Origin: a virus
Taxonomy: Duplodnaviria > Heunggongvirae > Uroviricota > Caudoviricetes
Strand: one strand, 5' to 3'
Length of the DNA: 23,852 nt
IMG/VR virus record: IMGVR_UViG_2585427740_000001
The notes under the pieces were generated by a model, which searched no databases, was not told the origin of the DNA, and saw nothing but the letters and a program-made list of their open reading frames with translations. Shown here in pieces: positions 4,000-23,852 of the stretch (position 1 is the stretch's first letter; each line of letters starts with the position of its first letter). A program made the position numbers and the translations under genes.

Positions 4000-4063
4000 T
4001 ACATACTTCCTAGAGATAATTCTATGGAGGCATTAAATTAATACTGTCATTGGTAATATCATA

Positions 4064-5447: not shown

Positions 5448-5545
5448 CTTTCATTAATCCCTGAATTGTTGGTTAATACGCTTGAGGGTGAATGCGAATA
5501 ATAAAAAAGGAGCCTGTAGCTCCCTGATGATTTTGCTTTTCATGT

Positions 5546-5761
5546 TCACCGTTCCTTAAAAACGCCGTTTAACATGCCGATTGCTAGACTTAAATGAGTC
5601 GGTGTGAATCCCATCAGCGTTACCGTTTCGCGGTGCTTCTTCAGTACGCTACGGCAAATGTCATCGACGTTTTTATCCGGAAACTGCTGTCTGGCTTTTT
5701 TGATTTCAGAATTAGCCTGACGGGCAATGCTGCGAAGGGCGTTTTCCTGCTGAGGTGTCAC
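5546..5761 (-). CDS. Hypothetical small protein (71 aa from GTG 5761; alternatively 93 aa from ATG 5827)
   Basis: ORF-track ORF 5546-5827. The GTG at 5761 overlaps the TGA of the upstream 27-aa peptide ORF (GTGA), suggesting coupling. The N-terminal 22 residues of the longer form look like out-of-frame translation of the peptide gene. Confidence 0.5.
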   Translation of the reverse strand: MTPQQENALRSIARQANSEIKKARQQFPDKNVDDICRSVLKKHRETVTLMGFTPTHLSLAIGMLNGVFKER

Positions 5762-5841
5762 TGAACAAGCCCCATGTCGGCAAGCATAAGCACACAGAAT
5801 ATGAAGCCCGCTGCCAGAAAAATGCATTCAGTGGTTGTCAT
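5758..5841 (-). CDS. Candidate 27-aa hydrophobic (single transmembrane) peptide MTTTECIFLAAGFIFCVLMLADMGLVQ
   Basis: ATG overlaps the TGA stop of the upstream 63-aa ORF (ATGA). Hydrophobic core of about 17 residues. Found by hand translation; below ORF-track cutoff. Confidence 0.35.
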   Translation of the reverse strand: MTTTECIFLAAGFIFCVLMLADMGLVQ

Positions 5842-6029
5842 ACCTGGTCTCTCTCATCTGCTTCTGCTTTCGCCACCATCATTTCCAGTTTTTGTGAAAG
5901 GGATGTGGCTAACGTATGAAATTCTTCGTCTGTTTCTACTGGTATTGGCACAAACCTGATTCCAATTTGAGCAAGGCTATGTGCCATCTCGATACTCGTT
6001 CTTAACTCAACAGGAGATGCTTTGTGCAT
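5838..6029 (-). CDS. Hypothetical protein, 63 aa, immediately downstream of exo in the leftward operon
   Basis: ORF with GAGG 6-8 nt upstream of ATG; same strand and spacing as the early-left operon genes. Confidence 0.55.
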   Translation of the reverse strand: MHKASPVELRTSIEMAHSLAQIGIRFVPIPVETDEEFHTLATSLSQKLEMMVAKAEADERDQV

Positions 6030-6180
6030 ACAGCCCCTCGTTTATTATTTATCTCCTCAGCCAGCCGCTGTGCTTTCAGTGGATTTCGGATAACAGAAAG
6101 GCCGGGAAATACCCAGCCTCGCTTTGTAACGGAGTAGACGAAAGTGATTGCGCCTACCCGGATATTATCGTGAGGATGCG

Positions 6181-6861
6181 TCATCGCCATTGCTCCCCAA
6201 ATACAAAACCAATTTCAGCCAGTGCCTCGTCCATTTTTTCGATGAACACCGGCACCATCTCGTCAAAACTCGCCATGTACTTTTCATCCCGCTCAACCAC
6301 GACATAATGCAGTCCTTCACGCTTCATACGCGGGTCATAGTTGGCAAAGTACCAGGCATCTTTTCGTGTCACCCACATGCTGTACTGCACCTGGGCCATG
6401 TAAGCCGACTTTATGGCCTCGAAACCACCGAGCCGGAACTTCATGAAATCCCGGGAGGTAAACGGGCATTTCAGCTCAAGGCCATTGCCGTCACTGCATA
6501 AACCATCGGGAGAGCAGGCGGTGCGCATACTTTCGTCGCGATAGATGATCGGGGATTCAGTAACATTCACGCCGGAAGTGAATTCAAACAGGGTTCTGGC
6601 GTCGTTCTCGTACTGTTTTCCCCATGCCAGCGCCTTAGCATTAACTTCCGGAGCCACACCGGTGCAAACCTCAGCCAGCAGGGTGTGGAAGTAGGACATT
6701 TTCATGTCAGGCCACTTCTTTCCTGAGCGGGGCTTGGCTATCACGTTGTGAACTTCTGAAGCGGTGATGACGCCGAGCCGTAATTTGTGCCATGCATCAT
6801 CCCCCTGTTCGACAGCTCTCACGTCGATCCCGGTACGCTGCAGGATAATGTCCGGTGTCAT
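6181..6861 (-). CDS. exo: Lambda exonuclease (Red-alpha)
   Basis: 226-aa translation ([30 protein letters not shown]...) matches lambda Exo as recalled. Confidence 0.97.
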
Positions 6862-7306
6862 GCTGCCACCTTCTGCTCAGTGGCTTTCTGTTTCAGGAAT
6901 CCAAGAGCTTTCACTGCTTCGGCCTGTGTCAGTTCTGACGATGCGCGAATGTCGCGGCGAAATATCTGGGAACAGAGCGGCAATAAGTCGTCATCCCATG
7001 TTTTGTCCAGGGCAATCAGCAGAGTGTTAATCTCCTGCATGGTTTCATCGTTAACCGGAGTAATGTCGCGTTCCGGCTGACGTTCTGCGGTGTATGCGGT
7101 ATTTTCGACAATGCGCTCGGCTTCATCCTTGTCATAGATACCAGCAAATCCGAAGGCCAGACGGGCACACTGAATCATGGCTTTATGCCGTAACATCCGT
7201 TTGGGATGCGACTGCCACGGCCCCGTAATTTCTCTGCCTTCGCGGGTTTTGAATGGTTCGCGGCGGCATTCATCCATCCATTCGGTAACGCAGATCGGAT
7301 GATTAC
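6858..7306 (-). pseudogene. bet: bet (Red-beta), 5'-truncated: only the C-terminal ~145 codons remain
   Basis: Translation from ...NHPICVTEWMDECRREPFKTREGREITGPWQSHPKRMLRH... to the C-terminus matches lambda Bet as recalled. The N-terminal ~115 codons are absent and the frame runs into ren-derived sequence on the opposite strand. Confidence 0.88.
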
Positions 7307-7426
7307 CGGTTCGCTACCAGGGAAGAACGGGAAGGAAAGGTGAGCACGAATCTGATTTTCAAGGAGTGTCGCCAGAGTGCCGCGATGAAGCGGGTGTTGG
7401 CATTTTATCGCGGCAATTTTCAATAG
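7304..7426 (+). pseudogene. ren: ren 3' fragment (last ~40 codons: YRFATREEREGKVSTNLIFKECRQSAAMKRVLAFYRGNFQ*)
   Basis: Plus-strand frame matches the recalled C-terminus of lambda Ren (...YYRFATREEREGKMSTNLVFKECRQSAAMKRVLAVYGVKR). It begins abruptly at the bet breakpoint. Confidence 0.7.
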
Positions 7427-7463
7427 ACTATGTACATAAAAATATCATTTTTTTAATACATGT

Positions 7464-7655
7464 CTAATTATTGGACGAAATTGGTTTTTGCTTTGGTTTA
7501 GTTAGCCTAGCAATCAAGCCAGAGGCAATAATGATGATCCAAGCAATTTGATGCAATGCTACTCCAATATAAGAACCTTTATAGATAATAAAGGCATAGA
7601 TCGCTAGAAACGAAATAAATATCCATAACGAAAGTTGATAAATTTTGGCGCGCAT
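7464..7655 (-). CDS. Possible small two-helix membrane protein (63 aa) in AT-rich insert
   Basis: ORF with two hydrophobic stretches; no convincing RBS; AT-rich DNA can yield spurious ORFs. Confidence 0.3.
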   Translation of the reverse strand: MRAKIYQLSLWIFISFLAIYAFIIYKGSYIGVALHQIAWIIIIASGLIARLTKPKQKPISSNN

Positions 7656-7911
7656 ATTTAATCCAATCAATCAGAAAGACGAGTAATCATAGAGGTACTA
7701 TCACCCGGGTAACTATTGCTATTATGAACGGATAGGATAGAGGCTTCAATAACATATGCATCAAGTATGATGGAATATGTAGGTGAAAATGACTTGTGTC
7801 AAATTTGTGGAAATGAGTACCATGTTTCTCTGAAATTGATGTCGTTAATGGCTAGTGATAGTGAACTTTTTTACTTTATAATTCCTTTGGTTATAACAAT
7901 AAGGTAAATTT

Positions 7912-8472
7912 ATGAAGAAGATAATATTATTAGCCATGATTATTGGTTCTTTAACAGGTTGCGCTAGTGTGCCACCATTGAATTTTTCAACACCTAACGT
8001 GGGAGTTAGCCAGAAAAAAATAGATGCTGAAATTAAGTCATTAACGGTATCACTTGCTCGTCCAGATGAGCAGAAAGGGGATATCACTGCTGGTATGGAG
8101 GCTATAACTCCAATTTGGCGTGAATCTTTGCAGGAAGCACTCGACCGAATGACTATTTTTCGTGATAGTTCACCAAATACGGTTAGCTTAAATGTTAAAG
8201 TGTTGGCTCTTGACGTTCCTGCTTTTGGTGTTTCAATGACAACTAAAGCAATTGCAAGGTATGAAATAATCAACCGTGCGAATGGTGATATTATATATAC
8301 GCAGGATATTGAGTCTACCGGTACTGTTCCAGCCAGTTACGCATTCTACGGTATTGTTCGAGCACGCGAATCTGTTAATCGCGCGGTGCAAAACAACATA
8401 ACGCAGTTCTTGCAAGCATTAGAAAGTGTTGATCTTTCTCGTCCAATGTTTCCTGTTAGGGTAGCTAAATGA
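7912..8472 (+). CDS. Lipoprotein, 186 aa (signal peptide with lipobox LTGC); function unknown
   Basis: MKKIILLAMIIGSLTGCAS... lipobox; AAGG RBS about 9 nt upstream. Stop overlaps the start of the next gene (ATGA). Confidence 0.8.
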   Translation: MKKIILLAMIIGSLTGCASVPPLNFSTPNVGVSQKKIDAEIKSLTVSLARPDEQKGDITAGMEAITPIWRESLQEALDRMTIFRDSSPNTVSLNVKVLALDVPAFGVSMTTKAIARYEIINRANGDIIYTQDIESTGTVPASYAFYGIVRARESVNRAVQNNITQFLQALESVDLSRPMFPVRVAK

Positions 8473-8921
8473 AGCGATTATTCGTAATTGCTCCACTCTT
8501 AGTGTTGGTTGGATGCGCACAAAATATATCGCCAAATAGTTATTCTGTTGGCTCTGTGGGCATGGTTAATCGAACTATCGCTGGTACAGTTATTAGTGCT
8601 AGGGGGGTTGATATCAGTGGGACTTCCGCGTTAGGCGGGACTGCTGGGGCTGCCGTGGGGGCAACCGCTGGTTCTGCGCTTGGTGGGGGAGTTCGTTCTA
8701 ATATCGTTGGTGCCGTTGGTGGTGCAGTCATTGGTGGTATTGCCGGGGCAGCAATCGAATCTTCAGCAACAAAACAAACAGGCATGGAATATGTTGTCGA
8801 AACTGAGAATGGGAATTTAATGACCATTGTTCAAGGCAAAGATCCGTTATTTACTCAAGGAAGTAAGGTCCTTGTTTTATACGGAAACCCTTCTCGCATA
8901 ATAACAGACCCGCGTCACTAA
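8469..8921 (+). CDS. SlyB/Pcp-like outer-membrane lipoprotein with glycine-zipper segment, 150 aa
   Basis: Lipobox LVGCAQ. Long Gly/Ala-rich zipper (GGTAGAAVGATAGSALGGGVRSNIVGAVGGAVIGGIAGAAIE) and a C-terminal region resembling SlyB as recalled. Translationally coupled to the upstream lipoprotein. Confidence 0.8.
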   Translation: MKRLFVIAPLLVLVGCAQNISPNSYSVGSVGMVNRTIAGTVISARGVDISGTSALGGTAGAAVGATAGSALGGGVRSNIVGAVGGAVIGGIAGAAIESSATKQTGMEYVVETENGNLMTIVQGKDPLFTQGSKVLVLYGNPSRIITDPRH

Positions 8922-9111
8922 CATACCTTTTGATTTTGTAAAATCAATTCGTAATAATAAAGTCATCGGAGCTTGAACAACTCCGGTGACTTCTGCGCTA
9001 AACGGGGACGTTTATGCGCACATACAATCCAAACTCTCTTCTCCCTTCACAGATGCAGAAATGCACCTGCGATTTTTTGCATCCAGCGTCTGACCTCTGC
9101 GGAGGTGAAGC

Positions 9112-9567
9112 GTGAACCTACCACAAGATGGCATCAAACTGCATCGCGGTAACTTCACCGCTATCGGCCAGCAGATCCAGCCTTATCTGGAGGACGGAAA
9201 ATGCTTTCGCATGGTGCTTAAACCGTGGCGTGAGAAACGCAGTCTTTCCCAGAATGCACTCAGCCACATGTGGTACAGCGAAATCAGTGAATACCTCATC
9301 AGCAGGGGGAAATCGTTCGCTACCGCAGCATGGGTAAAAGATGCTCTCAAACACACATACCTCGGTTATGAAACCAAGGACCTGGTTGATGTCGTAACCG
9401 GCGAAATCACTACTATCCAGTCGTTACGCCATACCTCCGATCTTGATACCGGAGAGATGTATATCTTCCTGTGTAAGGTTGAAGCCTGGGCGGTGAATAT
9501 TGGCTGCCACCTGACTATTCCGCAGAGCTGCGAGTTCCAGCAGCTCCGCGACAAACAGGAGGCGTAA
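9112..9567 (+). CDS. ybcN: NinB/YbcN-family DNA-binding protein
   Basis: 151-aa ORF from GTG with GGAGGTGA RBS. Translation matches DLP12 YbcN as recalled; sits in the NinB position of the nin region. Confidence 0.85.
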
Positions 9568-9737
9568 TGGCTACACCGCTTATTCGTGTCATGAACGGAC
9601 ACATCTACAGAGTACCAAATCGTCGTAAGCGTAAACCGGAGCTGAAGCCTTCCGAAATACCAACACTGCTCGGATATACCGCCAGCCTGGTTGATAAAAA
9701 ATGGTTGCGACTGGCAGCAAGGAGGAGTCATGGCTGA
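9567..9737 (+). CDS. ninE: NinE-family protein (56 aa)
   Basis: Hand translation [59 protein letters not shown] overlaps the ybcN stop (TAATG). Confidence 0.7.
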   Translation: MATPLIRVMNGHIYRVPNRRKRKPELKPSEIPTLLGYTASLVDKKWLRLAARRSHG

Positions 9738-10020
9738 TTTGAGAAAAGCAGCGCGTGGTCGGGAATGCCAGGTAAGAATCCCTGGCGTATGTAATGGCAA
9801 CCCTGAAACGTCTGTACTGGCACATATCCGGCTGACTGGATTGTGCGGCACCGGTACGAAACCGCCAGACCTGATTGCCACCATTGCATGTTCTGCCTGC
9901 CACGACGAAATCGACCGCCGCACACATTTTGTCGATGCTGCATATGCAAAAGAATGCGCGCTGGAAGGTATGGCGAGAACACAGGTTATCTGGCTGAAAG
10001 AGGGGGTTATTAAGGCGTGA
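9730..10020 (+). CDS. ybcO: YbcO-family protein (DUF1364, putative nuclease), 96 aa
   Basis: ORF-track ORF 9691-10020; likely start [14 protein letters not shown]... at ATG 9730 with AGGAGG upstream. Cys/His-rich motif. Matches DLP12 YbcO as recalled. Confidence 0.8.
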
Positions 10021-10379
10021 ATACCTACAGCATCACATTACCCTGGCCTCCGAGCAATAATCGCTATTACCGCCATAATCGCGGGCGCACACACATCAGC
10101 GCAGAAGGGCAGGCATACCGCGATAACGTCACCCGAATCATTAAAAACGCAATGCTGGATATCGGCCTGGCTATGCCAGTGAAAATCCGTATTGAGTGCC
10201 ACATGCCGGATCGCCGTCGCCGTGACCTGGATAATCTGCAAAAAGCCGCTTTTGACGCACTCACCAAAGCAGGTTTCTGGCTGGATGATGCTCAGGTCGT
10301 TGATTACCGCGTTGTGAAGATGCCTGTTACCAAAGGTGGGAGGCTGGAACTGACCATCACCGAAATGGGGAATGAATGA
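10017..10379 (+). CDS. rusA: RusA Holliday-junction resolvase
   Basis: 120-aa translation ([26 protein letters not shown]...) matches RusA as recalled. Confidence 0.95.
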
Positions 10380-10516
10380 TGTTTGAGTTTAATATGGCAG
10401 AACTTCTTCGCCACCGCTGGATGCGCCTGCGCTTATATCGTTTCCCCAGTTCTGTTTTGACCGATTACCGAATACTGAGGAATTACGCCAAAACCCTGAC
10501 AGGAGCAGGAGTATGA
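10376..10516 (+). CDS. ylcG: YlcG-family small protein (46 aa)
   Basis: Hand translation [49 protein letters not shown] overlaps the rusA stop. Confidence 0.6.
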
Positions 10517-10601
10517 AGTCAGAGATAACAATCAACTAATACTGTTTTATTGATTTTTGCTTGTAATTGGCGTTCTGGTCTGATTTTTGTGGAGTAAGTT
10601 G

Positions 10602-10985
10602 ATGCGTGATATTCAGATGGTTCTTGAGCGTTGGGGAGCGTGGGCGGCTAATAATCATGAAGATGTGACCTGGTCGTCCATTGCCGCCGGTTTTAAGGGA
10701 TTAATTACTTCAAAAGTAAAATCTCGCCCGCAATGTTGTGACGATGACGCGATGATCATTTGCGGGTGCATGGCCCGTCTGAAAAAGAACAACAGCGATT
10801 TGCACGATTTATTAGTAGATTATTATGTAGTCGGTATGACATTCATGTCACTGGCAGGTAAGCATTGCTGCTCTGATGGTTATATCGGGAAAAGGTTACA
10901 GAAGGCTGAGGGTATAATTGAAGGGATGTTAATGGCATTAGATATCCGGTTAGAGATGGATATCGTTGTTAATAACTCTAATTAA
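10602..10985 (+). CDS. Q: Late-gene antiterminator Q (QuuD-like, phage 82/21 type)
   Basis: 127 aa from ATG 10602 with GGAG RBS ([24 protein letters not shown]...). Matches DLP12 QuuD as recalled. Confidence 0.9.
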
Positions 10986-11102
10986 TATGCCAATTGTTTA
11001 CTAAAAATTATTAAAAATGGGGCGTTGAGACGCCCCCAAAAATAAAGGGTAATATATAACAGAAGGTTTATATAGTTAGAAGCAAGGTTGTGCTCCTAAA
11101 GG

Positions 11103-11165
11103 AAGTGGCTTGAGGGAGCCACTTATATGTTGGGGAGGCAAAGCCTCCCGCAACATATCTTTTAG
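11103..11165 (+). terminator. Two tandem stem-loops; the second (11125-11158, ~15-bp stem) is followed by CTTTTAG; candidate tR' of the late operon
   Basis: Inverted repeats AAGTGGCT/AGCCACTT and ATATGTTGGGGAGGC/GCCTCCCGCAACATAT read directly. Lies about 140 nt downstream of Q and just past the 3' end of the convergent porin gene. Confidence 0.5.
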
Positions 11166-11173
11166 TAATCAAA

Positions 11174-12256
11174 TTAGAACTGGTAAACCATACCTACAGC
11201 AACGATATCATCGGTAGCAACGCCAGATGCTTTCGTGAAATCGCTCTTATCAATCAGGTTGATTTTGTAATCAACAAAAGTGGACATATTTTTGTTGAAG
11301 TAATAGGTTGCACCTACATCAATATATTCAACCAGGTCCTGATCACCCCACGCACCCAAGTCTTTTCCTTTAGATTGCAGGTAAGCAACGGACGGACGCA
11401 GACCGAAGTCGAACTGATATTGTGCAACTACTTCGAAGTTTTGTGCTTTGTTGGCAATATGGTTATTACCAAAAACAGTCATGTTCTGGGTTTCAGAATA
11501 GGTGGTAGCCAGATAGATGTTGTTCGCATCATATTTCAGACCAGCTGCCCATACTTCAGCATTTTGACCAGATGCATTCAGGCTGTTGTTACCGTAGATA
11601 ACCTGATTATTAGTGCGGTCAGATTTAGCATAGGTTGCACCTACACCGAATCCTTCATACTCATAAGTAGTGGAGAAACCGAAACCATCACCATTAGCTT
11701 CAGTTACGTCAGTGCGGTCATTTTTACCCTGATACTGAGCAGCAAAGTTCAGACCATCAACCAGACCAAAGAAGTCATTGTTACGATAAGTTGCAACACC
11801 TGTGGTGCGACCAGTCATGAATACATCTGTTTGGGTCCAGGTATCGCCACCGAATTCTGGCAGAACGTCGGTCCATGCACCAATATCGTATGCTACACCG
11901 TAGTTACGGCCATAATCGATGGAGCCGTAGTCACCGAATTTCAGGCCAGCGAAGGCAAGACGGGTTTTATCTTTGGAGGAACCTTGAGATTCAGCGCGGT
12001 TGCCTTTGAATTCATATTCCCACTGACCGAAACCAGTCAGTTGATCGTTGATTTGGGTTTCACCTTTGAAGCCAAGACGGGCATAAGTAGTATCACCATC
12101 ATCTGCATCATTAGAGGAGAAGTAGTGCTTAGCATTAACTTTCCCGTACAGATCCAGCTTGTTACTGTCTTTATTATAAATTTCAGCTGCCTGAGCAGAC
12201 ATCGCCATCAGTACTGATGCAGCTACAGCAGAAATTGCCACTGTTAATTTTTTCAT
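11174..12256 (-). CDS. nmpC: General porin of the OmpC/OmpF/NmpC(Lc) family
   Basis: 360 aa from [23 protein letters not shown] (signal peptide) to the C-terminal ...VGMVYQF. Resembles NmpC/Lc as recalled. The ORF-track ORF extends 20 codons further upstream, judged spurious. Confidence 0.92.
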
Positions 12257-12682
12257 CGTGAGCCCTTTTTTTGAACTATTATTAAAAAATGATGTCACTG
12301 CGCGATAAATATTCATCTAATCAATGTGATTATTTCAAGATGTAAGTTTTGGTTTCTCATTTGATTTGTGAAGTAGATCTCTATTTTTATCTGAACTTTT
12401 TCTATCGAATCCTATTCATGGCTCTTGGCTGAATAAAAATAAATCTATTAGCCAATTTATATTAATGGCTGTTATTTATAAGTGCTCTATAATTTGAAGA
12501 TTCAATTTAAACCAGCTAAAAATAACGCTGGAAATTATTTGTTGGTTATTTGTTGAGATTTGCTTATGTATTTGTAGTGGTGTTTTCAATACTCGGTAGC
12601 ATTCTCGCAAATATCATTTAGTGGTTTACGTACGTAAAAAATTGGTTATGCTGTTAAGAGTGGTTACTTCGTCACACAGCTT

Positions 12683-12716
12683 AAACCCGCCGTCGAGCGG
12701 GTTTTTCCATTTTTTG
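12683..12716 (+). terminator. Intrinsic terminator-like hairpin (AAACCCGC-CGTCGA-GCGGGTTT) followed by TTCCATTTTTT
   Basis: Perfect 8-bp GC-rich stem and T-tract read directly. Lies in the AT-rich region between the porin start and S. Confidence 0.5.
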
Positions 12717-12843
12717 AGTCTCGATATTAGCTGATAACCCAATACCTGAGTTATTCACTGACTCCGAGTCTGTTACGTTTCTGCTTTTTTGCGATACGTT
12801 GTATTCCCTCAATTTACACCCGCTTTGTCTGCGAGGTGGGGTT

Positions 12844-13059
12844 ATGAAATCCATGGATAAGTTAACAACGGGTGTCGCCTATGGCACCTCAGCAGGTAGT
12901 GCCGGTTACTGGTTTTTACAGCTGCTCGATAAAGTCACGCCCTCACAGTGGGCAGCAATAGGTGTGCTGGGTAGCCTGGTATTTGGCCTGCTGACGTACC
13001 TGACAAACCTTTATTTCAAGATTAAAGAAGATAAGCGCAAGGCTGCGAGAGGTGAATAA
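12844..13059 (+). CDS. S: Class II holin (phage 21 S-type pinholin) with dual-start motif MKSMDK
   Basis: Translation [71 protein letters not shown] resembles S21 as recalled. Two Met codons three codons apart; two TM segments. Confidence 0.9.
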
Positions 13060-13556
13060 TGCCTCCATCATTACGAAAAGCCGTTGCTGCTGCTATTGGT
13101 GGCGGAGCAATTGCTATAGCATCAGTGTTAATTACTGGCCCAAGTGGTAACGATGGTCTGGAAGGTGTCAGCTACGTACCATACAAAGATATCGTTGGCG
13201 TATGGACTGTATGTCACGGACACACCGGAAAAGACATCATGCTCGGTAAAACGTATACCAAAGCAGAATGCAAAGCACTCTTGAATAAAGACCTTGCCAC
13301 TGTCGCCAGACAAATTAACCCGTACATCAAAGTCGATATACCGGAAACAACGCGCGGCGCTCTTTACTCATTCGTTTACAACGTGGGTGCTGGCAATTTC
13401 AGAACATCGACGCTTCTTCGCAAAATAAACCAGGGCGATATCAAAGGCGCATGTGATCAGCTACGTCGCTGGACATATGCTGGCGGTAAGCAATGGAAAG
13501 GTCTCATGACTCGTCGTGAGATTGAGCGTGAAATCTGTTTGTGGGGTCAGCAATGA
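13059..13556 (+). CDS. R: SAR endolysin (T4-lysozyme-like muramidase with N-terminal signal-anchor-release domain)
   Basis: 165 aa with a Gly/Ala-rich weakly hydrophobic N-terminus ([20 protein letters not shown]) followed by a lysozyme-like core. Start overlaps the holin stop. Confidence 0.92.
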
Positions 13557-14014
13557 ACAGAGTAACCGCGATTATCTCCGCTCTGGTTATCTGCATCATC
13601 GTCTACCTGTCATGGGCTGTTAATCATTACCGTGATAACGCCATTACCTACAAAGCCCAGCGCGACAAAAATGCCAGAGAACTGAAGCTGGCGAACGCGG
13701 CAATTACTGACATGCAGATGCGTCAGCGTGATGTTGCTGCGCTCGATGCAAAATACACGAAGGAGTTAGCTGATGCGAAAGCTGAAAATGATGCTCTGCG
13801 TGATGATGTTGCCGCTGGTCGTCGTCGGTTGCACATCAAAGCAGTCTGTCAGTCAGTGCGTGAAGCCACCACCGCCTCCGGCGTGGATAATGCAGCCTCC
13901 CCCCGACTGGCAGACACCGCTGAACGGGATTATTTCACCCTCAGAGAGAGGCTGATCACTATGCAAAAACAACTGGAAGGAACCCAGAAGTATATTAATG
14001 AGCAGTGCAGATAG
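13553..14014 (+). CDS. Rz: Rz inner-membrane spanin subunit
   Basis: 153 aa, N-terminal TM then coiled coil. ATG overlaps the R stop (ATGA). Confidence 0.85.
13773..13955 (+). CDS. Rz1: Rz1 outer-membrane lipoprotein spanin subunit, embedded in the +1 frame of Rz
   Basis: 60 aa with lipobox VVGCTS and proline-rich segment (PPPPPAW...PPPDW). AGGAG RBS 8 nt upstream. Lies entirely inside Rz. Confidence 0.8.
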
Positions 14015-14045
14015 AGTTGCCCATATCGATGGGCAACTCATGCAA

Positions 14046-14339
14046 TTATTGTGAGCAATACACACGCGCTTCCAGCGGAGTATAAATGCCTAAAGTAATA
14101 AAACCGAGCAATCCATTTACGAATGTTTGCTGGGTTTCTGTTTTAACAACATTTTCTGCGCCGCCACAAATTTTGGCTGCATCGACAGTTTTCTTCTGCC
14201 CAATTCCAGAAACGAAGAAATGATGGGTGATGGTTTCCTTTGGTGCTACTGCTGCCGGTTTGTTTTGAACAGTAAACGTCTGTTGAGCACATCCTGTAAT
14301 AAGCAGGGCCAGCGCAGTAGCGAGTAGCATTTTTTTCAT
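14046..14339 (-). CDS. bor: Bor lipoprotein (serum-resistance-associated)
   Basis: 97-aa translation MKKMLLATALALLITGCAQQTFTVQNKPAAVAPKETITHHFFVSGIGQKK... matches lambda Bor as recalled. Confidence 0.92.
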   Translation of the reverse strand: MKKMLLATALALLITGCAQQTFTVQNKPAAVAPKETITHHFFVSGIGQKKTVDAAKICGGAENVVKTETQQTFVNGLLGFITLGIYTPLEARVYCSQ

Positions 14340-14629
14340 GGTGTTATTCCCGATGCTTTTTGAAGTTCGCAGAATCGTATGTGTAGAAAATTAAACAAAC
14401 CCTAAACAATGAGTTGAAATTTCATATTGTTAATATTTATTAATGTATGTCAGGTGCGATGAATCGTCATTGTATTCCCGGATTAACTATGTCCACAGCC
14501 CTGACGGGGAACTTCTCTGCGGGAGTGTCCGGGAATAATTAAAAACGATGCACACAGGGTTTAGCGCGTACACGTATTGCATTATGCCAACGCCCCGGTG
14601 CTGACACGGAAGAAACCGGACGTTATGAT

Positions 14630-15040
14630 TTAGCGTGGAAAGATTTGTGTAGTGTTCTGAATGCTCTCAGTAAATAGTAATGAATTATCAAAGGTATAGT
14701 AATATCTTTTATGTTCATGGATATTTGTAACCCATCGGAAAACTCCTGCTTTAGCAAGATTTTCCCTGTATTGCTGAAATGTGATTTCTCTTGATTTCAA
14801 CCTATCATAGGACGTTTCTATAAGATGCGTGTTTCTTGAGAATTTAACATTTACAACCTTTTTAAGTCCTTTTATTAACACGGTGTTATCGTTTTCTAAC
14901 ACGATGTGAATATTATCTGTGGCTAGATAGTAAATATAATGTGAGACGTTGTGACGTTTTAGTTCAGAATAAAACAATTCACAGTTTAAATCTTTTCGCA
15001 CTTGATCGAATATTTCTTTAAAAATGGCAACCTGAGCCAT
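14630..15040 (-). CDS. ybcV: YbcV-family protein (DUF1398)
   Basis: 136 aa from [24 protein letters not shown]... matching DLP12 YbcV as recalled. The ORF-track ORF extends to 15163; the upstream 41 codons are judged non-coding. Confidence 0.8.
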
Positions 15041-15325
15041 TGGTAAAACCTTCCATGTGATACGAGGGCGCGTAGTTTGCATTATCGTTTTTATCGTTTC
15101 AATCTGGTCTGACCTCTTTGTGTTTTGTTGATGATTTATGTCAAATATTAGGAATGTTTTCACTTAATAGTATTGGTTGCGTAACAAAGTGCGGTCCTGC
15201 TGGCATTCTGGAGGGAAATACAACCGACAGATGTATGTAAGGCCAACGTGCTCAAATCTTCATACAGAAAGATTTGAAGTAATATTTTAACCGCTAGATG
15301 AAGAGCAAGCGCATGGAGCGACAAA

Positions 15326-15532
15326 ATGAATAAAGAACAATCTGCTGATGATCCCTCCGTGGATCTGATTCGTGTAAAAAATATGCTTAATAGCACCATT
15401 TCTATGAGTTACCCTGATGTTGTAATTGCATGTATAGAACATAAGGTGTCTCTGGAAGCATTCAGAGCAATTGAGGCAGCGTTGGTGAAGCACGATAATA
15501 ATATGAAGGATTATTCCCTGGTGGTTGACTGA
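15326..15532 (+). CDS. ybcW: YbcW-family small protein (68 aa)
   Basis: Translation [40 protein letters not shown]... matches YbcW as recalled. Confidence 0.75.
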
Positions 15533-15696
15533 TCACCATAACTGCTAATCATTCAAACTATTTAGCCTGTGACAGAGCCAACACGCAGTCTGTCACTGTC
15601 AGGAAAGTGGTAAAACTGCAACTCAATTACTGCAATGCCCTCGTAATTAAGTGAATTTACAATATCGTCCTGTTCGGAGGGAAGAACGCGGGATGT

Positions 15697-15891
15697 TCAT
15701 TCTTCATCACTTTTAATTGATGTATATGCTCTCTTTTCTGACGTTAGTCTCCGACGGCAGGCTTCAATGACCCAGGCTGAGAAATTCCCGGACCCTTTTT
15801 GCTCAAGAGCGATGTTAATTTGTTCAATCATTTGGTTAGGAAAGCGGATGTTGCGGGTTGTTGTTCTGCGGGTTCTGTTCTTCGTTGACAT
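15697..15891 (-). CDS. ylcI: YlcI-family protein (DUF3950), 64 aa
   Basis: Translation MSTKNRTRRTTTRNIRFPNQMIEQINIALEQKGSGNFSAWVIEACRRRL... matches YlcI as recalled. Confidence 0.75.
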   Translation of the reverse strand: MSTKNRTRRTTTRNIRFPNQMIEQINIALEQKGSGNFSAWVIEACRRRLTSEKRAYTSIKSDEE

Positions 15892-16059
15892 GAGGTTGCC
15901 CCGTATTCAGTGTCGCTGATTTGTATTGTCTGAAGTTGTTTTTACGTTAAGTTGATGCAGATCAATTAATACGATACCTGCGTCATAATTGATTATTTGA
16001 CGTGGTTTGATGGCGTAGATGCACGTTGTGACATGTAGATGATAATTATTATCATTTTT

Positions 16060-16279
16060 CGGGTCCTTTCCGGCGATCCGACAGGTTACGGGGCGGCGAC
16101 CTCGCGGGTTTTCGCTATTTATGAAAATTTTCCGGTTTAAGGCGTTTCCGTTCTTCTTCGTCATAACTTAATGTTTTTATTTAAAATACCCTCTGAAAAG
16201 AAAGGAAGCGACAGGTGCTGAAAGCGAGCTTTTTGGCCTCTGTCGTTTCCTTTCTCTGTTTTTGTCCGTGGAATGAACA
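16060..16279. other. cos: cos site: cosN with 12-nt cohesive end GGGCGGCGACCT at 16091-16102, followed by cosB (terminase small-subunit binding region) up to the nu1 start
   Basis: Sequence ...CGACAGGTTACG GGGCGGCGACCT CGCGGGTTTTCGCTATTTATGAAAATTTTCCGGTTTAAGGCG... matches the recalled lambda genome ends joined at cos. Confidence 0.88.
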
Positions 16280-16795
16280 ATGGAAGTCAACAAAAAGCAG
16301 CTGGCTGACATTTTCGGTGCGAGTATCCGTACCATTCAGAACTGGCAGGAACAGGGAATGCCCGTTCTGCGAGGCGGTGGCAAGGGTAATGAGGTGCTTT
16401 ATGACTCTGCCGCCGTCATAAAATGGTATGCCGAAAGGGATGCTGAAATTGAGAACGAAAAGCTGCGCCGGGAGGTTGAAGAACTGCGGCAGGCCAGCGA
16501 GGCAGATCTCCAGCCAGGGACTATTGAGTACGAACGCCATCGACTTACGCGTGCGCAGGCCGACGCACAGGAACTGAAGAATGCCAGAGACTCCGCTGAA
16601 GTGGTGGAAACCGCATTCTGTACTTTCGTGTTGTCGCGGATCGCAGGTGAAATTGCCAGTATTCTCGACGGGATCCCCCTGTCGGTGCAGCGGCGTTTTC
16701 CGGAACTGGAAAACCGACATGTTGATTTCCTGAAACGGGATATCATCAAAGCCATGAACAAAGCAGCCGCGCTGGATGAACTGATACCGTTATGA
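16280..16795 (+). CDS. nu1: Terminase small subunit Nu1, C-terminally altered (171 aa; the last ~10 residues of lambda Nu1 are replaced by a single L and a stop)
   Basis: Translation MEVNKKQLADIFGASIRTIQNWQEQGMPVLRGGGKGNEVLYDSAAVIKWYAERD... matches lambda Nu1 through ...AALDELIP, then diverges at about 16789. Confidence 0.9.
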   Translation: MEVNKKQLADIFGASIRTIQNWQEQGMPVLRGGGKGNEVLYDSAAVIKWYAERDAEIENEKLRREVEELRQASEADLQPGTIEYERHRLTRAQADAQELKNARDSAEVVETAFCTFVLSRIAGEIASILDGIPLSVQRRFPELENRHVDFLKRDIIKAMNKAAALDELIPL

Positions 16796-16817
16796 GTTTA
16801 CGGATACGCTGGGGCTG

Positions 16818-17222
16818 GTGACGTCATTCAGCTATGCAGGAGACAAGAATCGCCAGCTGACCCATTACAGCGATACCCGCTGGCATGAAGATTCCGTTCG
16901 TAACCGCTGGTTCAGCGTAATGGCGGGGCCGTCTGTGCGCGTGAATGAATGGTTCAGCGCGTATGCGATGGCGGGTGTGGCTTACAGCCGTGTGTCGACT
17001 TTCTCCGGGGATTATCTCCGCGTAACTGACAACAAGGGGAAAACGCACGACGTGCTGACCGGAAGTGATGACGGTCGCCACAGCAACACGTCTCTGGCGT
17101 GGGGAGCTGGCGTGCAGTTTAACCCGACCGAATCCGTGGCCATTGATATTGCTTATGAAGGCTCCGGCAGTGGCGACTGGCGCACTGACGGTTTCATCGT
17201 GGGTGTCGGTTATAAGTTCTGA
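16818..17222 (+). pseudogene. lom: lom (Ail/Lom/PagC-family outer-membrane protein), 3' fragment lacking signal peptide and proper start
   Basis: C-terminal ...SVMAGP...AYAMAGVA...IAYEGSGSGDWRTDGFIVGVGYKF matches the lambda Lom C-terminus as recalled. Upstream sequence is nu1; no ATG or signal peptide. Confidence 0.85.
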
Positions 17223-17250
17223 TTAGCCAGGTAACACAGTGTTATGACAG

Positions 17251-17276
17251 CCCGCCGGTTCAGGCGGGCTTTTTTG
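17251..17276 (+). terminator. Rho-independent terminator (GCCCGCC-GGTTCAG-GCGGGC followed by TTTTTT)
   Basis: Perfect GC-rich hairpin plus T6, read directly. Immediately downstream of the lom fragment. Confidence 0.85.
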
Positions 17277-17286
17277 TGGGGTGAAT

Positions 17287-20250
17287 ATGGCAGTAAAGAT
17301 TTCAGGTGTACTGAAAGACGGCACAGGAAAACCGGTACAGAACTGCACAATCCAGCTGAAAGCAAAACGTAACAGCACCGCGGTGGTGGTGAACACGCTG
17401 GCCTCAGAAAATCCGGATGAAGCCGGGCGTTACAGCATGGACGTTGAGTACGGTCAGTACAGCGTTATTCTGTTGGTGGAAGGATTCCCGCCGTCACATG
17501 CCGGGACCATCACCGTGTATGAAGATTCCCGACCCGGTACGCTGAATGATTTTCTCGGTGCCATGACGGAGGATGATGCCCGTCCGGAGGCTCTGCGCCG
17601 TTTTGAACTGATGGTGGAAGAGGTGGCGCGTAACGCGTCCGCAGTGGCACAGAACACGGCAGCCGCGAAGAAGTCAGCCAGTGATGCCAGCACATCTGCC
17701 AGTGAGGCGGCAACTCATACAACCGATGCTGCAGGCTCAGCTCGTGCCGCCAGCACGTCAGCCGGACAGGCTGCATCATCTGCTCAGTCAGCATCTTCCA
17801 GCGCAGGAACGGCATCAACAAAGGCCAGTGAAGCATCGAAAAGTGCTGCTGCTGCAGAGTCCTCAAAAAGCGCGGCAGCTACCAGTGCCGCTGCGGCGAA
17901 AACGTCAGAAACGAATGCGGCAGCGTCACAACAATCAGCAGCCACTTCTGCATCCGCCGCGACCACGAAGGCGTCAGAAGCTGCCACCTCAGCCCGGGAT
18001 GCGGCGGCCTCAAAAGAGGCGGCAAAATCATCAGAAACGAGCGCAGCCTCGAGCGCCAGTAGTGCAGCCTCCTCGGCAACAGCGGCAGGAAATTCCGCGA
18101 AGGCGGCAAAAACGTCCGAGACGAACGCTAAGTCTTCTGAGACGGCAGCAGCACAGAGTGCCTCCGCAGCAGCAGACTCAAAAACAGCGGCTGCCTCATC
18201 TGCCAGCGCCGCGTCAACAAATGCCGGGCAGGCCTCAGCCAGTGCCACCGCTGCCGGAAAGTCGGCAGAAAGCGCCGCATCATCCGCTTCAACAGCCACA
18301 ACGAAGGCTGGCGAAGCCACTGAACAGGCCACGGCAGCAGCGAGGTCAGCTTCCGCAGCGAAGACATCCGAAACGAACGCGAAAGCGTCGGAAACCAGCG
18401 CAGAATCCTCAAAAACGGCTGCCGCATCGTCAGCCAGTTCGGCGGCGTCATCGGCATCATCGGCGTCTGCTTCAAAAGATGAGGCGACCAGACAGGCGTC
18501 AGCAGCGAAGGGCAGCGCCACGACGGCATCCACGAAGGCGACAGAGGCAGCTGGCAGTGCGACGGCGGCAGCTCAGAGCAAAAGTACGGCGGAATCCGCG
18601 GCAACGCGCGCCGAGACAGCAGCAAAACGGGCAGAGGATATTGCATCCGCCGTGGCGCTTGAGGATGCGAGCACGACGAAAAAGGGGATAGTACAGCTCA
18701 GCAGTGCGACTAACAGCACTTCCGAGTCACTGGCGGCAACGCCAAAAGCCGTTAAGGCCGCGTATGAGCTGGCTAACGGGAAATACACCGCACAGGATGC
18801 AACGACAGCACAGAAAGGGATAGTTCAGCTTAGCAACGCGACCAACAGCACATCTGAAATGCTGGCGGCAACGCCAAAGTCGGTAAAGGCAGCCTATGAC
18901 CTTGCTAACGGGAAATATACTGCTCAGGACGCTACGACAGCACAAAAAGGAATTGTCCAGCTCAGTAGTGCAACCAACAGCGCATCTGAAACGCTTGCCG
19001 CGACACCGAAAGCAGTGAAAGCAGCTAATGATAATGCGAATGGTCGGGTACCTTCTGCCCGTAAGGTGAATGGTAAGGCGCTTTCAGCGGATATAACACT
19101 GACGCCGAAAGATATTGGTACGCTTAACTCAACAACAATGTCATTCAGCGGTGGTGCTGGTTGGTTCAAATTAGCAACGGTAACCATGCCACAGGCGAGT
19201 TCTGTTGTTTCAATTACGTTGATTGGTGGCGCGGGATTTAACGTGGGGTCACCTCAACAGGCAGGTATATCTGAACTTGTTTTGCGTGCAGGTAATGGTA
19301 ATCCGAAGGGGATTACTGGTGCTTTATGGCAGCGCACATCGACAGGGTTTACAAATTTTGCCTGGGTCAATACATCTGGTGATACTTACGATATTTACGT
19401 TGCAATCGGAAATTATGCGACTGGTGTAAATATTCAATGGGATTATACCAGTAATGCCAGCGTGACGATTCATACGTCACCAGCATATTCTGCTAATAAG
19501 CCGGAAGGGTTAACGGACGGTACAGTTTATTCACTCTATACGCCATCAGAGCAGTTTTATCCGCCTGGCGCACCAATCCCGTGGCCATCAGATACCGTTC
19601 CGTCTGGCTATGCCCTGATGCAGGGGCAGACTTTTGACAAATCTGCATACCCGAAACTTGCAGCCGCTTATCCGTCAGCCGTGATCCCTGATATGCGTGG
19701 CTGGACGATTAAGGGCAACCCCGCCAGTGGTCGTGCCGTATTGTCTCAGGAACAGGACGGCATTAAATCGCACACCCACAGCGCCAGCGCATCCAGTACG
19801 GATTTGGGGACGAAAAACACATCGTCGTTTGATTACGGAACCAAATCCACGAATAACACCGGGGCGCATACCCATAGTATTAGCGGGACTGCAAATAGTG
19901 CCGGTGCGCACCAACACAAGAGTTCCGGTGCATTTGGTGGCACGAACACGAGCATTTTCCCTAATGGTTATACCGCGATTTCAAATCTAAGCGCGGGGAT
20001 TATGAGCACAACAAGCGGTAGTGGCCAGACTCGTAATGCAGGGAAGACATCATCAGATGGTGCTCATACCCACTCGCTGTCCGGCACTGCTGCAAGCGCA
20101 GGCGCACATGCACATACTGTCGGTATTGGTGCTCATACGCACTCCGTTGCGATTGGCTCACACGGACACACCATCACCGTTAACGCTGCTGGTAACGCGG
20201 AAAACACCGTCAAAAACATCGCATTTAACTATATTGTGAGGCTTGCATAA
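17287..20250 (+). CDS. stf: Side tail fibre protein Stf (about 987 aa from ATG 17287), with long Ala/Ser/Thr-rich low-complexity region, three ~43-aa tandem repeats and a His-rich C-terminal domain
   Basis: N-terminus [30 protein letters not shown]... and C-terminus ...[11 protein letters not shown] match lambda Stf as recalled. ORF-track ORF begins 2 codons upstream at GTG. Confidence 0.92.
18673..19050 (+). repeat. Three tandem ~129-132-nt repeats inside stf (unit encodes [19 protein letters not shown](S/M)[12 protein letters not shown](E/D)[11 protein letters not shown])
   Basis: Repeated peptide and nucleotide blocks starting near 18673, 18802 and 18934, read directly. Confidence 0.8.
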
Positions 20251-20831
20251 TGGCATTCAGAATGAGTGAACAACCACGGACCATAAAAATTTATAATCTG
20301 CTGGCCGGAACTAATGAATTTATTGGTGAAGGTGATGCATATATTCCGCCTCATACAGGTCTGCCAGCAAACAGTACCGATATTGCACCGCCAGATATTC
20401 CGGCTGGCTTCGTGGCTGTTTTCAACAGTGATGAGTCATCGTGGCATCTTGTTGAAGACCATCGGGGTAAAACAGTTTATGACGTGGCATCAGGGGACGC
20501 GTTATTTATTTCTGAACTCGGCTCATTACCGGAAAATGTTACCTGGTTATCCCCGGAAGGGGAGTTTCAGAAGTGGAACGGCACAGCCTGGGTGAAGGAT
20601 ACGGAAGCAGAAAAACTGTTCCGGATCCGGGAGGTGGAAGAAACAAAAAACAGCCTGATGCAGGTAGCCAGTGAGCATATAGCGCCGCTTCAGGATGCTG
20701 TGGATCTGGAGATCGCAACGGAGGAAGAAACCTTGTTGCTGGAAGCCTGGAAAAAGTATCGGGTATTGCTGAACCGTGTTGATACGTCAACTGCACAGGA
20801 TATTGAATGGCCAGTAGCACCTATAGGGTAA
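20250..20831 (+). CDS. tfa: Tail fibre assembly chaperone Tfa
   Basis: 193-aa translation [51 protein letters not shown]... matches lambda Tfa as recalled. ATG overlaps the stf stop. Confidence 0.95.
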
Positions 20832-21689
20832 ATTCGTAATGATTACCTAAATACGTTATTCTTTTGTTCAAAAAGTGATTTTGCTATAGATAGGGAGTAT
20901 GTTCTTGGATTAAGAATAAAAATCGCCATGAAAGAGCTTCATGGCGAGTACATAAACGTACAAAATGTGATGAAAGTAGAGTGGCGTAAGCCACTATATT
21001 AAGATGTGACAATAGCGAAGAAAAGTAAATAACATTTTATGGACGTTTAATTGTTAATTATAAAAACTAGAGTGCCCGATATTGTTTACCTTGCTTTAAA
21101 ATAATGTACTCAAACCAAATTTTTGAGCTAAAAGCTCAAATAATATAAATGCAATAATAATGTTTAATAAGACAATTAGCTTGCTTTGTATTTTCATTTC
21201 GGAATACTGTTAAGTAACTTTGATGACCCTAACAATAGATCGGAATTTTCTTAGAGTCAATGGTCACTGTTTTTGCTTGCAAAGCAAATGTTTTGGTGGT
21301 TATAAGTTGTCTTAATATAGTCACGCATGCAACTTGTTCCATGCGGAGATTAAAGATTGGAATATAACGCTAAGATGGAATTAAATTACATTTGCAATAA
21401 TCAATTTATTATTACTCAATAATTACCGATATTATTATTGTAAATTAATCATTAGAGTGCAAAAAGAAATGTAACGGCAAAATAAGAGGACGATAGCTGA
21501 GAAAAAAGCGTGCTTTCCCAATCTGGGGCAAATCACGTCTGAATGACACCTGAAAACAGGTGGTAGCCTCAAGAAGGCTTGGAATATTCTTCTTTAATGT
21601 TATGTAATTCATTGATTTTTCGTGTACGATTTAAAGACATTTATTCCAAGAAAAATTTTTAACTCTTTGATTTTTCGACTCTGTATCAT

Positions 21690-21751
21690 CGGTCTCGAAA
21701 ACCGGAGTAGGGGCAACTCTACCGGGGGTTCAAATCCCCCTCTCTCCGCCA
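21690..21751 (+). other. 3' fragment (~62 nt) of tRNA-Ser(CGA): anticodon stem-loop, variable arm, T-arm and acceptor 3' end with CCA; 5' half absent
   Basis: CGGTCTCGAAAACCGGAGTAGGGGCAACTCTACCGGGGGTTCAAATCCCCCTCTCTCCGCCA matches the recalled 3' portion of E. coli serU-type tRNA-Ser. The preceding sequence cannot form the acceptor/D arms. Confidence 0.75.
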
Positions 21752-22335
21752 CTTTATCAATGACTTATCTCCCGACTTCCCGCCTTGCTTTTCCTAAACA
21801 GAACAATCGTAGAATATTCTTGAAGGGTTAGATCGTCACTGTTTTCTGTTCGATACTGTGACATTCAGCACTTGATTCGCTATGGATCTGACAGGAAGGT
21901 TTTGAGCGAAAATTTGCAGTTATTCAGTCGTTTTCTTATCGGTCACCATTATTCTTTTAGACATTGATCCTACAAAGCTGCCGCAAAGTTGGTGGTGGGA
22001 ACTGAAGTTGCGTAGAGAAGGGGTCAATACCCGGAGGCAAACATGGGCTGGCAAAAGTGTAGCGGTATTAGGCGCAGCTATTTAGCCTAGTTATGTTTTA
22101 TGAAAACTTGATATCATATAAGTGTCTTACTTATTGGCTGTAAATAAGTTTTTCCTAAGGAATTGTTTCTTGAGTATCATTTGTAACTGTAACGGAATTT
22201 ATAATCCTTTGCTTTATTGTTACGGTATTTTTTATCACACCCTATTTTTTATGTGGTTTTTTATACTGAAGTTTGGCAAAGTGAACTTTATATGCATATA
22301 CTTCATCCTGGTTTCAGTTAAGTTGGGTGGATGAT

Positions 22336-23079
22336 ATGGCAACTACATGTTCAGTTATATTGATTTTGGAGTCCTTTGATGTTTATTTCGGAAAAGAGAG
22401 TGTGTTTCTGGAGAGAGGTTCATCTGTACTTGTCGACTCTAGCTCTAGAGATTTTTTCCTGACATATCCTGAAAGAGTGATAGTGGCGGATTTTGGCGCT
22501 GAGTTTATTAGTCGCTATTTGAAAGCTAATAACTTAAGGGATATTTCTGATTGTAGGGAATATCCATCTTATTTAAAAATAAACTTTGCTGACTTCAGTT
22601 TAATTAAAGGATTAATTAGTTGGGCTAATCACTGTGCTGAATACATAGAAATTTTTGATGAGTCTATTGCTTTTACATGTCTCTCTGCATTTTCTTCTGA
22701 AAAACAATTTGGAGTATTTCTGTTTGAATGTTTGAAAAGCACAGGGGCTAAAGTTAAAACGATTATTCATACGGATTTATCTGCACCATGGCGTCTTAAG
22801 GATATATCATCAAGATTATATCTCAGCGAAAGTTTACTAAAGAGGAAATTGAAAGAAGAGGGGGTATCATTCAGTAAGATCATACTTGATGAGAGGATGC
22901 AAATGGCTGAATATTTACTCAGCACTCGTTGTTATCCTATTAGTAAAGTAGCTAAGGTCTGTGGTTATGCCAGTGTCTCATACTTTACTTATGTATTTAG
23001 ACGTTATTTTGGTGTTTCTCCAAGTCAATACTCTCAGAGCAGTTCAGAAAGTAAAATTCTTACTCACCAGGGAATCTGA
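22336..23079 (+). CDS. AraC/XylS-family transcriptional regulator (AppY/EnvY-like), about 247 aa
   Basis: C-terminal AraC-type HTH signature (...WRLKDISSRLYLSESLLKRKLKEEGVSFSKIILDERMQMAEYLL...KVCGYASVSYFTYVFRRYFGVSPSQY). Low-GC gene; in-frame GTG 3 codons upstream is the ORF-track start. Confidence 0.85.
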   Translation: MATTCSVILILESFDVYFGKESVFLERGSSVLVDSSSRDFFLTYPERVIVADFGAEFISRYLKANNLRDISDCREYPSYLKINFADFSLIKGLISWANHCAEYIEIFDESIAFTCLSAFSSEKQFGVFLFECLKSTGAKVKTIIHTDLSAPWRLKDISSRLYLSESLLKRKLKEEGVSFSKIILDERMQMAEYLLSTRCYPISKVAKVCGYASVSYFTYVFRRYFGVSPSQYSQSSSESKILTHQGI

Positions 23080-23590
23080 TCATTGTTCTTGCCCCCTTAT
23101 TTCCAGACAGGGGGTGTATCTTAAGTTAACGTTACCCGCTGACGTCGATATTCTCGCGGAGAGCGATAACCCAACGCACTGTGCGGATGGTTTTCATTGT
23201 AATGTTCGATCGCCACTGCAAGATTATGCAATGCCGTTCTTACATTCGGTTTCGGCATGAACGCGATGTAGTCTTCCTTCATCGTTTTCACGAACCTTTC
23301 TGCCATTCCATTACTCTGAGGACTGCTGATTGCCGTTGTGCAGGGCTCCAGATTCAACTCTCTGGCGAACTGCCATGTTTCATGCGCTCTATACGCTGAA
23401 CCGTTATCTGTCAGCCACTGGATGGACTGTTCCGGTACTTTATCGCCAAAGCGTTTTTCTATCGCTCCTAACATGACATCCTGCACTGTCGCTTTATCGT
23501 AACCTCCCGTGCTTGCGGCCCAGTCTATGGCTTCACGATCGCAACAGTCCAGGGCGAACGTAACACGCAGTTTTGAATCGCCACGGGTTT
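23077..23590 (-). mobile_element. IS2-like (IS3 family) element fragment: terminal region plus 3' part of the transposase orfB
   Basis: Terminal sequence TTGCCCCCTTATTTCCAGACA resembles the recalled IS2 end. The orfB C-terminal translation matches IS2 InsD as recalled (...TVQDVMLGA...WLTDNGS.Y...[12 protein letters not shown]). Confidence 0.7.
23121..23585 (-). pseudogene. IS2-like transposase orfB, C-terminal ~155 codons only (5' part removed)
   Basis: ORF-track ORF 23121-23486 continues open upstream to a TAA at about 23586 (…[34 protein letters not shown]…). No orfA or N-terminal orfB upstream on this strand. Confidence 0.75.
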
Positions 23591-23630
23591 AACAGACACC
23601 TCAGAGTCATTTAAGATGGCTTAAAGAGAG

Positions 23631-23852
23631 GTGCCCATGAGCGGTAAGCGTTATCCCGAAGAGTTTAAAACTGAAGCAGTCAAACAGGTTGTTGATCGCG
23701 GTTATTCTGTTGCCAGCGTTGCAACACGTCTCGATATCACCACCCACAGCCTTTATGCCTGGATAAAGAAGTACGGTCCGGATTACTCCACTTTTTCATC
23801 AAGCCAATCCGCCCACCACTGCATCATTTCTCTGCGCTTATCGAGATACTGA
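23631..23852 (+). CDS. IS3-family transposase OrfA-like HTH protein (N-terminal part typical; C-terminus atypical, possibly disrupted)
   Basis: MSGKRYPEEFKTEAVKQVVDRGYSVASVATRLDITTHSLYAWIKKYGPD resembles IS3-family OrfA HTH domains. RBS AGAGAGGTGCCC-ATG. Opposite orientation to the IS2-like orfB fragment. Confidence 0.6.
   Translation: MPMSGKRYPEEFKTEAVKQVVDRGYSVASVATRLDITTHSLYAWIKKYGPDYSTFSSSQSAHHCIISLRLSRY

Follow-up and report, generated by a model that had tools for sequence, protein, structure and literature searches.

The histidine-rich C-terminal region of the side tail fibre protein (Stf) encoded in the window, the term used here for the whole stretch of 23,852 nucleotides, is very probably the needle domain of a receptor-binding tip of the T4 gp37 and lambda Stf type. 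An HxH needle of this kind is an ordinary and long-established feature of a very common Escherichia coli prophage gene and is already known, the HxH iron sites of gp37-type tips having been structurally defined since 2010. Its value for annotation lies in the seven His pairs, which mark a conserved scaffold and bracket a variable tip (19918..20064) that should set the choice of receptor.

Architecture of Stf and its HxH motifs

Stf is a full-length lambda-type side tail fibre protein. Its open reading frame (17281..20250, + strand) encodes 989 amino acids when begun at the GTG at 17281, and the near-identical RefSeq protein WP_000279081.1 begins at the ATG matching 17287 and has 987 amino acids; residue numbers given here for Stf follow the 989-residue frame from the GTG start. 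The gene, its domains and segments, and the chaperone gene that follows it are arranged as follows.

17287..20250, + strand: stf, side tail fibre gene, 987 amino acids from the RefSeq ATG (Pfam and 99.9% DNA identity)
17287..17688, + strand: N-terminal tail-attachment domain, PF08400 phage_tail_N (residues 3-136, E = 4.5e-71, full profile length)
18680..19025, + strand: 132-nt tandem repeat in the shaft, 2.6 copies (Tandem Repeats Finder)
19567..19710, + strand: Collar domain, PF07484 (residues 763-810, E = 1.6e-11)
19771..19917, + strand: needle outward arm, bearing HxH motifs 1-3; identity 72% with T4 gp37
19918..20064, + strand: hypervariable distal tip, residues 880-928 (column entropy and segment identities)
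20065..20247, + strand: needle return arm, bearing HxH motifs 4-7 and the conserved C-terminus ending in an 11-residue sequence; identity 77% with T4 and 92% with the lambda type
20250..20831, + strand: tfa, tail fibre assembly chaperone (PF02413, E = 7.7e-43; phrog_105, E = 9.9e-99)

In the cryo-EM structure of Ur-lambda, the Stf N-termini form part of a collar around the tail (PMC12617516). The shaft of the window protein contains three PF03406 Phage_fiber_2 repeats of 44 amino acids each (Pfam, E = 1.3e-51), and the 132-nt tandem repeat falls within the stretch that they occupy. The 14-residue repeat of PF03335 (Phage_fiber) gave a marginal match to Stf, scoring 20.2 bits where the curated gathering threshold is 20 (E = 5.6e-4); no stretch reaches this threshold alone, the best being the 14-residue segment 858-871 around the second HxH, and most database relatives carry a precomputed match to this family.

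Translation of the stf frame and a regular-expression scan identified exactly seven HxH motifs, within 19771..20169 of the window:

Motif 1, H831/H833, nt 19771-19779, + strand, in a 10-residue peptide
Motif 2, GAHTHSISG, H863/865, nt 19867-19875, + strand
Motif 3, GAHQHKSSG, H877/879, nt 19909-19917, + strand
Motif 4, GAHTHSLSG, H929/931, nt 20065-20073, + strand
Motif 5, GAHAHTVGI, H943/945, nt 20107-20115, + strand
Motif 6, GAHTHSVAI, H952/954, nt 20134-20142, + strand
Motif 7, GSHGHTITV, H961/963, nt 20161-20169, + strand

An earlier note on this DNA had reported repeated HxH motifs at 19760-20180; all seven lie inside that range, and every peptide that it quoted was found in the translation. 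The seven pairs account for 14 of the 17 His residues of the protein. When residues were shuffled, the mean number of HxH was 0.28 for the whole protein, 0.73 for the last 250 amino acids and 1.07 for the last 170, and seven were reached in none of 20,000 shuffles of Stf. The HxH pattern of Stf is far above chance expectation.

Homology to the T4 gp37 tip and the predicted metal-bound needle

A phmmer search of the PDB with the last 316 residues of Stf returned 2XGF, the receptor-binding tip of T4 gp37 (E = 6.3e-82), with query residues 73-316 matching residues 15-242 of the chain, from the collar to the last residue, over 244 residues at 66% identity; a profile search based on 35 relatives matched the same structure with E = 5.5e-106. 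By segment, the identity to T4 gp37 was 81% in the collar (residues 761-829), 72% in the outward arm and 77% in the return arm. In a four-way alignment of the window Stf, the Stf of mEp332, the lambda-type protein of HK630 and T4 gp37 (GenBank J02509), 14 of 14 His were invariant in all four proteins, and the T4 partners of the Stf residues, taken one-to-one, are H883/885, 915/917, 929/931, 966/968, 980/982, 989/991 and 998/1000. This T4 numbering agrees independently with PMC6957217, in which H929 and H931 are given as iron-binding residues. Successive HxH motifs are spaced 32, 14, 52, 14, 9 and 9 residues apart in Stf versus 32, 14, 37, 14, 9 and 9 in T4, and the last motif lies 29 residues from the C-terminus in both; since the spacings are equal except across the tip, both arms of the needle are in exact T4 register and the tip loop alone is different. 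The comparison with T4 gp37 and lambda-type distal domains, which had been proposed in the earlier note as a check, showed these domains to be homologous with all 14 His aligned.

The likeness to T4 gp37 is a homology of the whole tip, including the seven HxH motifs, the spacings of the arms, the collar and the 11-residue C-terminal sequence, and it extends to the presence of a chaperone gene directly downstream (gp38 in T4, tfa here). Between motifs 3 and 4 the two proteins differ: the distal tip comprises 34 amino acids in T4 and 49 in Stf and is 18% identical. T4 gp37 is a distal half-fibre, whereas the rest of Stf is of lambda type, with a PF08400 N-terminus and an Ala/Ser shaft, and T4 is a myovirus, whereas the stf gene belongs to a lambdoid prophage of siphovirus type. 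The homology between Stf and gp37 dates to 1989-1992 (Hendrix and Duda 1992; Montag 1989; both cited by PMC12617516), and lambda Stf has sequence and structure in common with the gp37 tip and binds OmpC (PMC12617516; PMC11338833). Lambda, in its Ur-lambda form, has in common with the window the lom-stf-tfa order, the family of the N-terminal domain, the collar and needle, and a near-identical tfa.

A protein search yielded 2015 relatives at E <= 1e-5, and seven HxH motifs were present in 114 of the best 120 of these 2015 relatives. In an alignment of 122 sequences, composed of the same best 120 relatives together with T4 and the lambda type, the His columns are 99.2-100% His.

The needle of T4 gp37 is said, in the T4 structure paper by Bartual and colleagues of 2010, to be a six-stranded interwoven bundle to which each chain contributes two antiparallel strands. 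PMC6957217 describes seven coordinated iron atoms along this needle, and PMC11705849 reports that the seven irons of the T4 crystal structure are held by paired His in octahedral sites and that the motif is conserved in lambda. The H929 iron site is critical to the folding and structure of the T4 fibre, and the substitutions H929A and H931A in gp37 are each lethal, giving no plaques (PMC6957217). The earlier note had proposed a metal-stabilised trimeric tip as in T4 gp37, with a beta-helical needle; the metal-site part of this proposal is borne out by the homology, all seven motifs aligning with T4, and the term beta-helical has to give way to six interwoven strands. The metal to be expected in the Stf tip would be iron, as in T4, the relation to T4 being one of homology and not of analogy. 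We infer the formation of a trimer, the identity and occupancy of the metal, and the receptor of Stf from homology, and an inward geometry of the Stf His would follow from homology.

By this homology, three Stf chains would leave the collar along a three-fold axis, build a small distal tip and return, so that six strands interweave into a rod. This rod would contain seven metal layers, in each of which the HxH motifs of the three chains present six inward imidazoles to one axial ion in octahedral coordination, most likely Fe2+ (iron in T4), and the seven ions would rivet the trimer together, fixing its register and stabilising it. A reversible first contact with the host receptor may be made by a surface that the 49 hypervariable residues between motifs 3 and 4 provide, and Tfa, whose synthesis would be translationally coupled to that of Stf, may chaperone the folding of the trimer. 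A single-chain AlphaFold2 model of the C-terminal 248 amino acids, computed with a 35-sequence alignment, had a mean pLDDT of 41.7 and a pTM of 0.17; this low monomer score, which makes the model uninformative, is ascribed to the domain being, as is presumed, an obligate interwoven and metal-bound trimer.

The T4 short tail fibre gp12 has a single axial HxH site that holds Zn2+. The same fold and structural role of the HxH motifs in Stf, but with a metal other than iron, either Zn2+ or a mixture set by availability, is quite improbable: sequence alone does not fix the metal, and the collar segment resembles the short-tail-fibre structures 9cuy/9mjn (E = 1.5e-07; profile 2.7e-10), but the likeness to these T4 gp12-type fibres concerns the collar domain only. 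They lack a seven-layer needle and have another distal domain. Among solved structures the closest to Stf is 2XGF, with needle arms 72-77% identical and identical ligand geometry, for which iron is reported at all seven sites (PMC6957217; PMC11705849). A published hypothesis, the 'Ferrojan horse', points to the HxH motifs in T4 and lambda and would make the fibre iron not purely structural but a bait that mimics siderophore-bound iron for a host uptake receptor (PMC11705849; bioRxiv 10.1101/674382 and others). Nothing in the window bears on this idea, and a siderophore-mimic role was rejected for Stf as very improbable, given that the ions would be buried on the trimer axis by homology to T4, that the H929 site is critical for folding whereas receptor contact maps to surface residues of the tip (PMC6957217), and that OmpC and LPS, and no siderophore transporters, are the receptors known for T4 gp37 and lambda Stf (PMC6957217, PMC12617516, PMC11338833). 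The possibility that the HxH motifs arose by accident of composition or low complexity and have no particular role would find some basis in the long low-complexity Ala/Ser stretches elsewhere in Stf, but its probability is negligible: the shuffles failed to produce seven HxH, all 14 His are invariant as far as T4 and at least 99.2% His in the 122 sequences, and chance or low complexity was rejected as the origin of the motifs on both grounds.

The variable tip and its relatives

In the alignment of 122 sequences, mean column entropy reached 1.89 bits between motifs 3 and 4 (residues 880-928), compared with 0.24 bits for the collar, 0.30 for the outward arm and 0.12 for the return arm. Stf and mEp332 are 100% identical over residues 880-928, where the identity of Stf is 27% with the lambda type and 18% with T4. 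Residues 880-928 correspond to the tip subdomain of T4, in which surface residues are required for binding to LPS and OmpC (PMC6957217), and are likely the receptor-contacting tip of Stf. Since this tip differs from that of T4 in length and sequence, a different receptor specificity is expected.

The lambda-type protein of HK630, with the 27% identical tip, has eight HxH motifs compared with seven in the window Stf. Its outward arm is longer by 10 amino acids (a second SFDYGTK unit) and its return arm by 9 amino acids, which include the eighth HxH; such matched insertions in the two arms are what a hairpin rod of stacked metal layers predicts. For the Stf of mEp332, a lambdoid phage known from E. 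coli K-12 (PMC3442831), identity to the window protein is 96% over the collar, 98% over the outward arm and 100% over both the tip and the return arm; at the DNA level, the tip and tfa are 96.0% identical in mEp332 and 97.1% in ev099. In both phages the proximal part of Stf differs, the DNA match beginning at query position 268 (window ~19567), and the mEp332 protein has 678 amino acids versus 987 for the window Stf with its three Phage_fiber_2 repeats. A search for literature on the mEp332 receptor found none, the sole paper mentioning mEp332 being on a qPCR method (PMC3442831).

A tblastn search of phage genomes found the domain in 616 records, including Tequatrovirus, lambdoid, P2-like and Felixounavirus phages. 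In many database relatives, the tip is fused to the N-terminus of a terminase, portal or ClpP protein, and these fusions look like deletion scars.

Prophage context and possible use of stf and tfa

The ATG of tfa shares one base with the TAA stop of stf (TAATG), and over the last HxH motifs and tfa the DNA is 93.5% identical to that of lambda. The T4 gp38 protein is replaceable by lambda Tfa (Montag 1989, as cited in PMC9659904). A search of the window for tRNA genes found none, and an Rfam scan of the window gave IS009, inside tfa, as its only match.

E. coli chromosomes such as that of EC416 carry DNA with 99.9% identity to stf-tfa of the window, annotated there as a prophage tail fibre, and a match spanning at least 80% of stf-tfa is present in 1305 of 5426 complete E. 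coli genomes. The EC416 locus is a DLP12-like defective prophage between ybhC and ybhB/bioA, an interval that we take to be the att-lambda region. Its genes run in the order int, xis, exo, truncated recT and ren, ybcN, ninE, rusA, quuD, a porin gene, essD/rrrD/rzpD, bor and nohD, the last of which abuts a 5'-truncated lom (Ail/Lom) directly upstream of stf; the order lom-stf-tfa, as at the end of a lambdoid late operon, is present in the window. The prophage annotation of this 99.9% identical locus contains none of the head and tail genes A to J, and several of the EC416 prophage genes are pseudogenes; stf and tfa are intact. While mEp332 and ev099 are complete phage genome records, the window holds a tail-less remnant. 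Both phages have the same AT-rich spacer after tfa as the window, and mEp332 also has an AraC-type regulator and a transposase annotated downstream. Because the tip, tfa and spacer are the same, the prophage remnant probably derives from an mEp332/ev099-like phage. As the prophage has no other virion genes, the fibre would be usable only if the gene recombined into another lambdoid phage or complemented one.

It is somewhat unlikely, in our estimate, that the gene encodes a genuine gp37-type needle which is an inert relic in the host genome, having no tail to carry the fibre and not yet having decayed. Such a relic would fit the junction of nohD and truncated lom in EC416, the missing head and tail genes and the pseudogenes, as well as the many relatives in which the tip is fused, as if by deletion, to terminase, portal or ClpP N-termini. 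It is less easily reconciled with a 987-codon frame and a tfa that are fully intact, with coupled stop and start, with the spread of stf-tfa through the 1305 E. coli genomes, and with the live phages mEp332 and ev099, in which the same tip and tfa occur (96-97% DNA identity), making recombinational reuse plausible. In any case, the relic reading concerns the use of the gene in the host and not the identity of the motifs, which is that of the gp37-type needle. Going further, the 49-residue tip may have an uncharacterised receptor specificity, and the intact cassette may persist as a source from which incoming lambdoid phages acquire it, recombining within the conserved arms, to switch their host range; we regard this as a tentative and, on balance, unlikely proposal. 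In lambda Stf chimeras made for DNA delivery or phage therapy, the receptor-binding part is swapped (PMC11338833), and the conserved arms are therefore plausible swap junctions.

A defective lambdoid prophage

The window (1..23852) is a defective DLP12-like lambdoid prophage at what we take to be the att-lambda region. It has lost every head and tail gene through deletion, as is seen especially at 16280..17222, where nohD immediately adjoins a truncated lom, while stf and tfa are still intact.

Features of the prophage
1..1284, ybhC
1419..2489, int
11174..12316, minus strand, OmpC/NmpC-like porin gene, annotated as ompC in EC416, an E. coli genome with near-identical stf-tfa DNA
16280..16795, nohD
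about 16785..17222, lom, 5'-truncated

The presence of a porin gene inside the prophage is of note because OmpC is the receptor for lambda-type Stf (PMC12617516, PMC11338833) as well as for T4 gp37 (PMC6957217), and superinfection could be affected by a prophage-encoded porin variant.

The AT-rich block downstream of tfa

The block that follows tfa (20832..23852) is AT-rich, with 30-40% GC, and includes a 1.5-kb stretch devoid of long ORFs. Within this stretch lies a tRNA-Ser-like fragment, at which no tRNA was called by ARAGORN.

Features of the AT-rich block
roughly 21690..21770, tRNA-Ser-like fragment of about 80 nt
22327..23079, AraC-family regulator (phrog_1450)
23121..23852, IS3-family transposase remnants

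Since the AT-rich spacer is common to phages mEp332, ev099, and PhiR70_1, the first of which also has the regulator and the transposase, the block looks like a phage-borne moron and not host DNA.

Shaft, needle length, and relatives of Stf

The Stf shaft contains a 132-nt tandem repeat (18680..19025; 2.6 copies, 78% matches), located inside a stretch of three Phage_fiber_2 repeats of 44 residues each, as detected by Pfam. The Ala/Ser-rich part of the shaft (17640..18660, about 60% GC) generates long ORFs in other frames (for example 17681..18691, plus strand, 336 aa) and on the opposite strand (for example 17784..18533, minus strand, 249 aa), all of them spurious rather than real genes.

In phage HK630 (L003), the lambda-type tip carries eight HxH layers, one more than the Stf of the window (19771..20169). 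The additional layer comes from the duplication of 10 residues (SFDYGTKTTG) in the outward arm, matched by an insertion of 9 residues (IGAHQHPVV) in the return arm. Whole metal layers seem to be the unit by which needle length varies.

Numerous close Stf-tip homologues are annotated as the large or small subunit of terminase, portal, ClpP protease, or Lom, or have Pfam domains of these at the N-terminus (for example P0006, P0032-P0036, P0038, P0069, P0076, and P0113 among the database relatives). These proteins look like in-frame fusions, in which deletions in decaying prophages joined head genes to the 3' end of stf.

The Rfam model of IS009 (RF02111), a candidate small-RNA family, matches over its full length on the plus strand at 20593..20791, entirely inside the tfa coding sequence; its 218 bits exceed the gathering score of 117.
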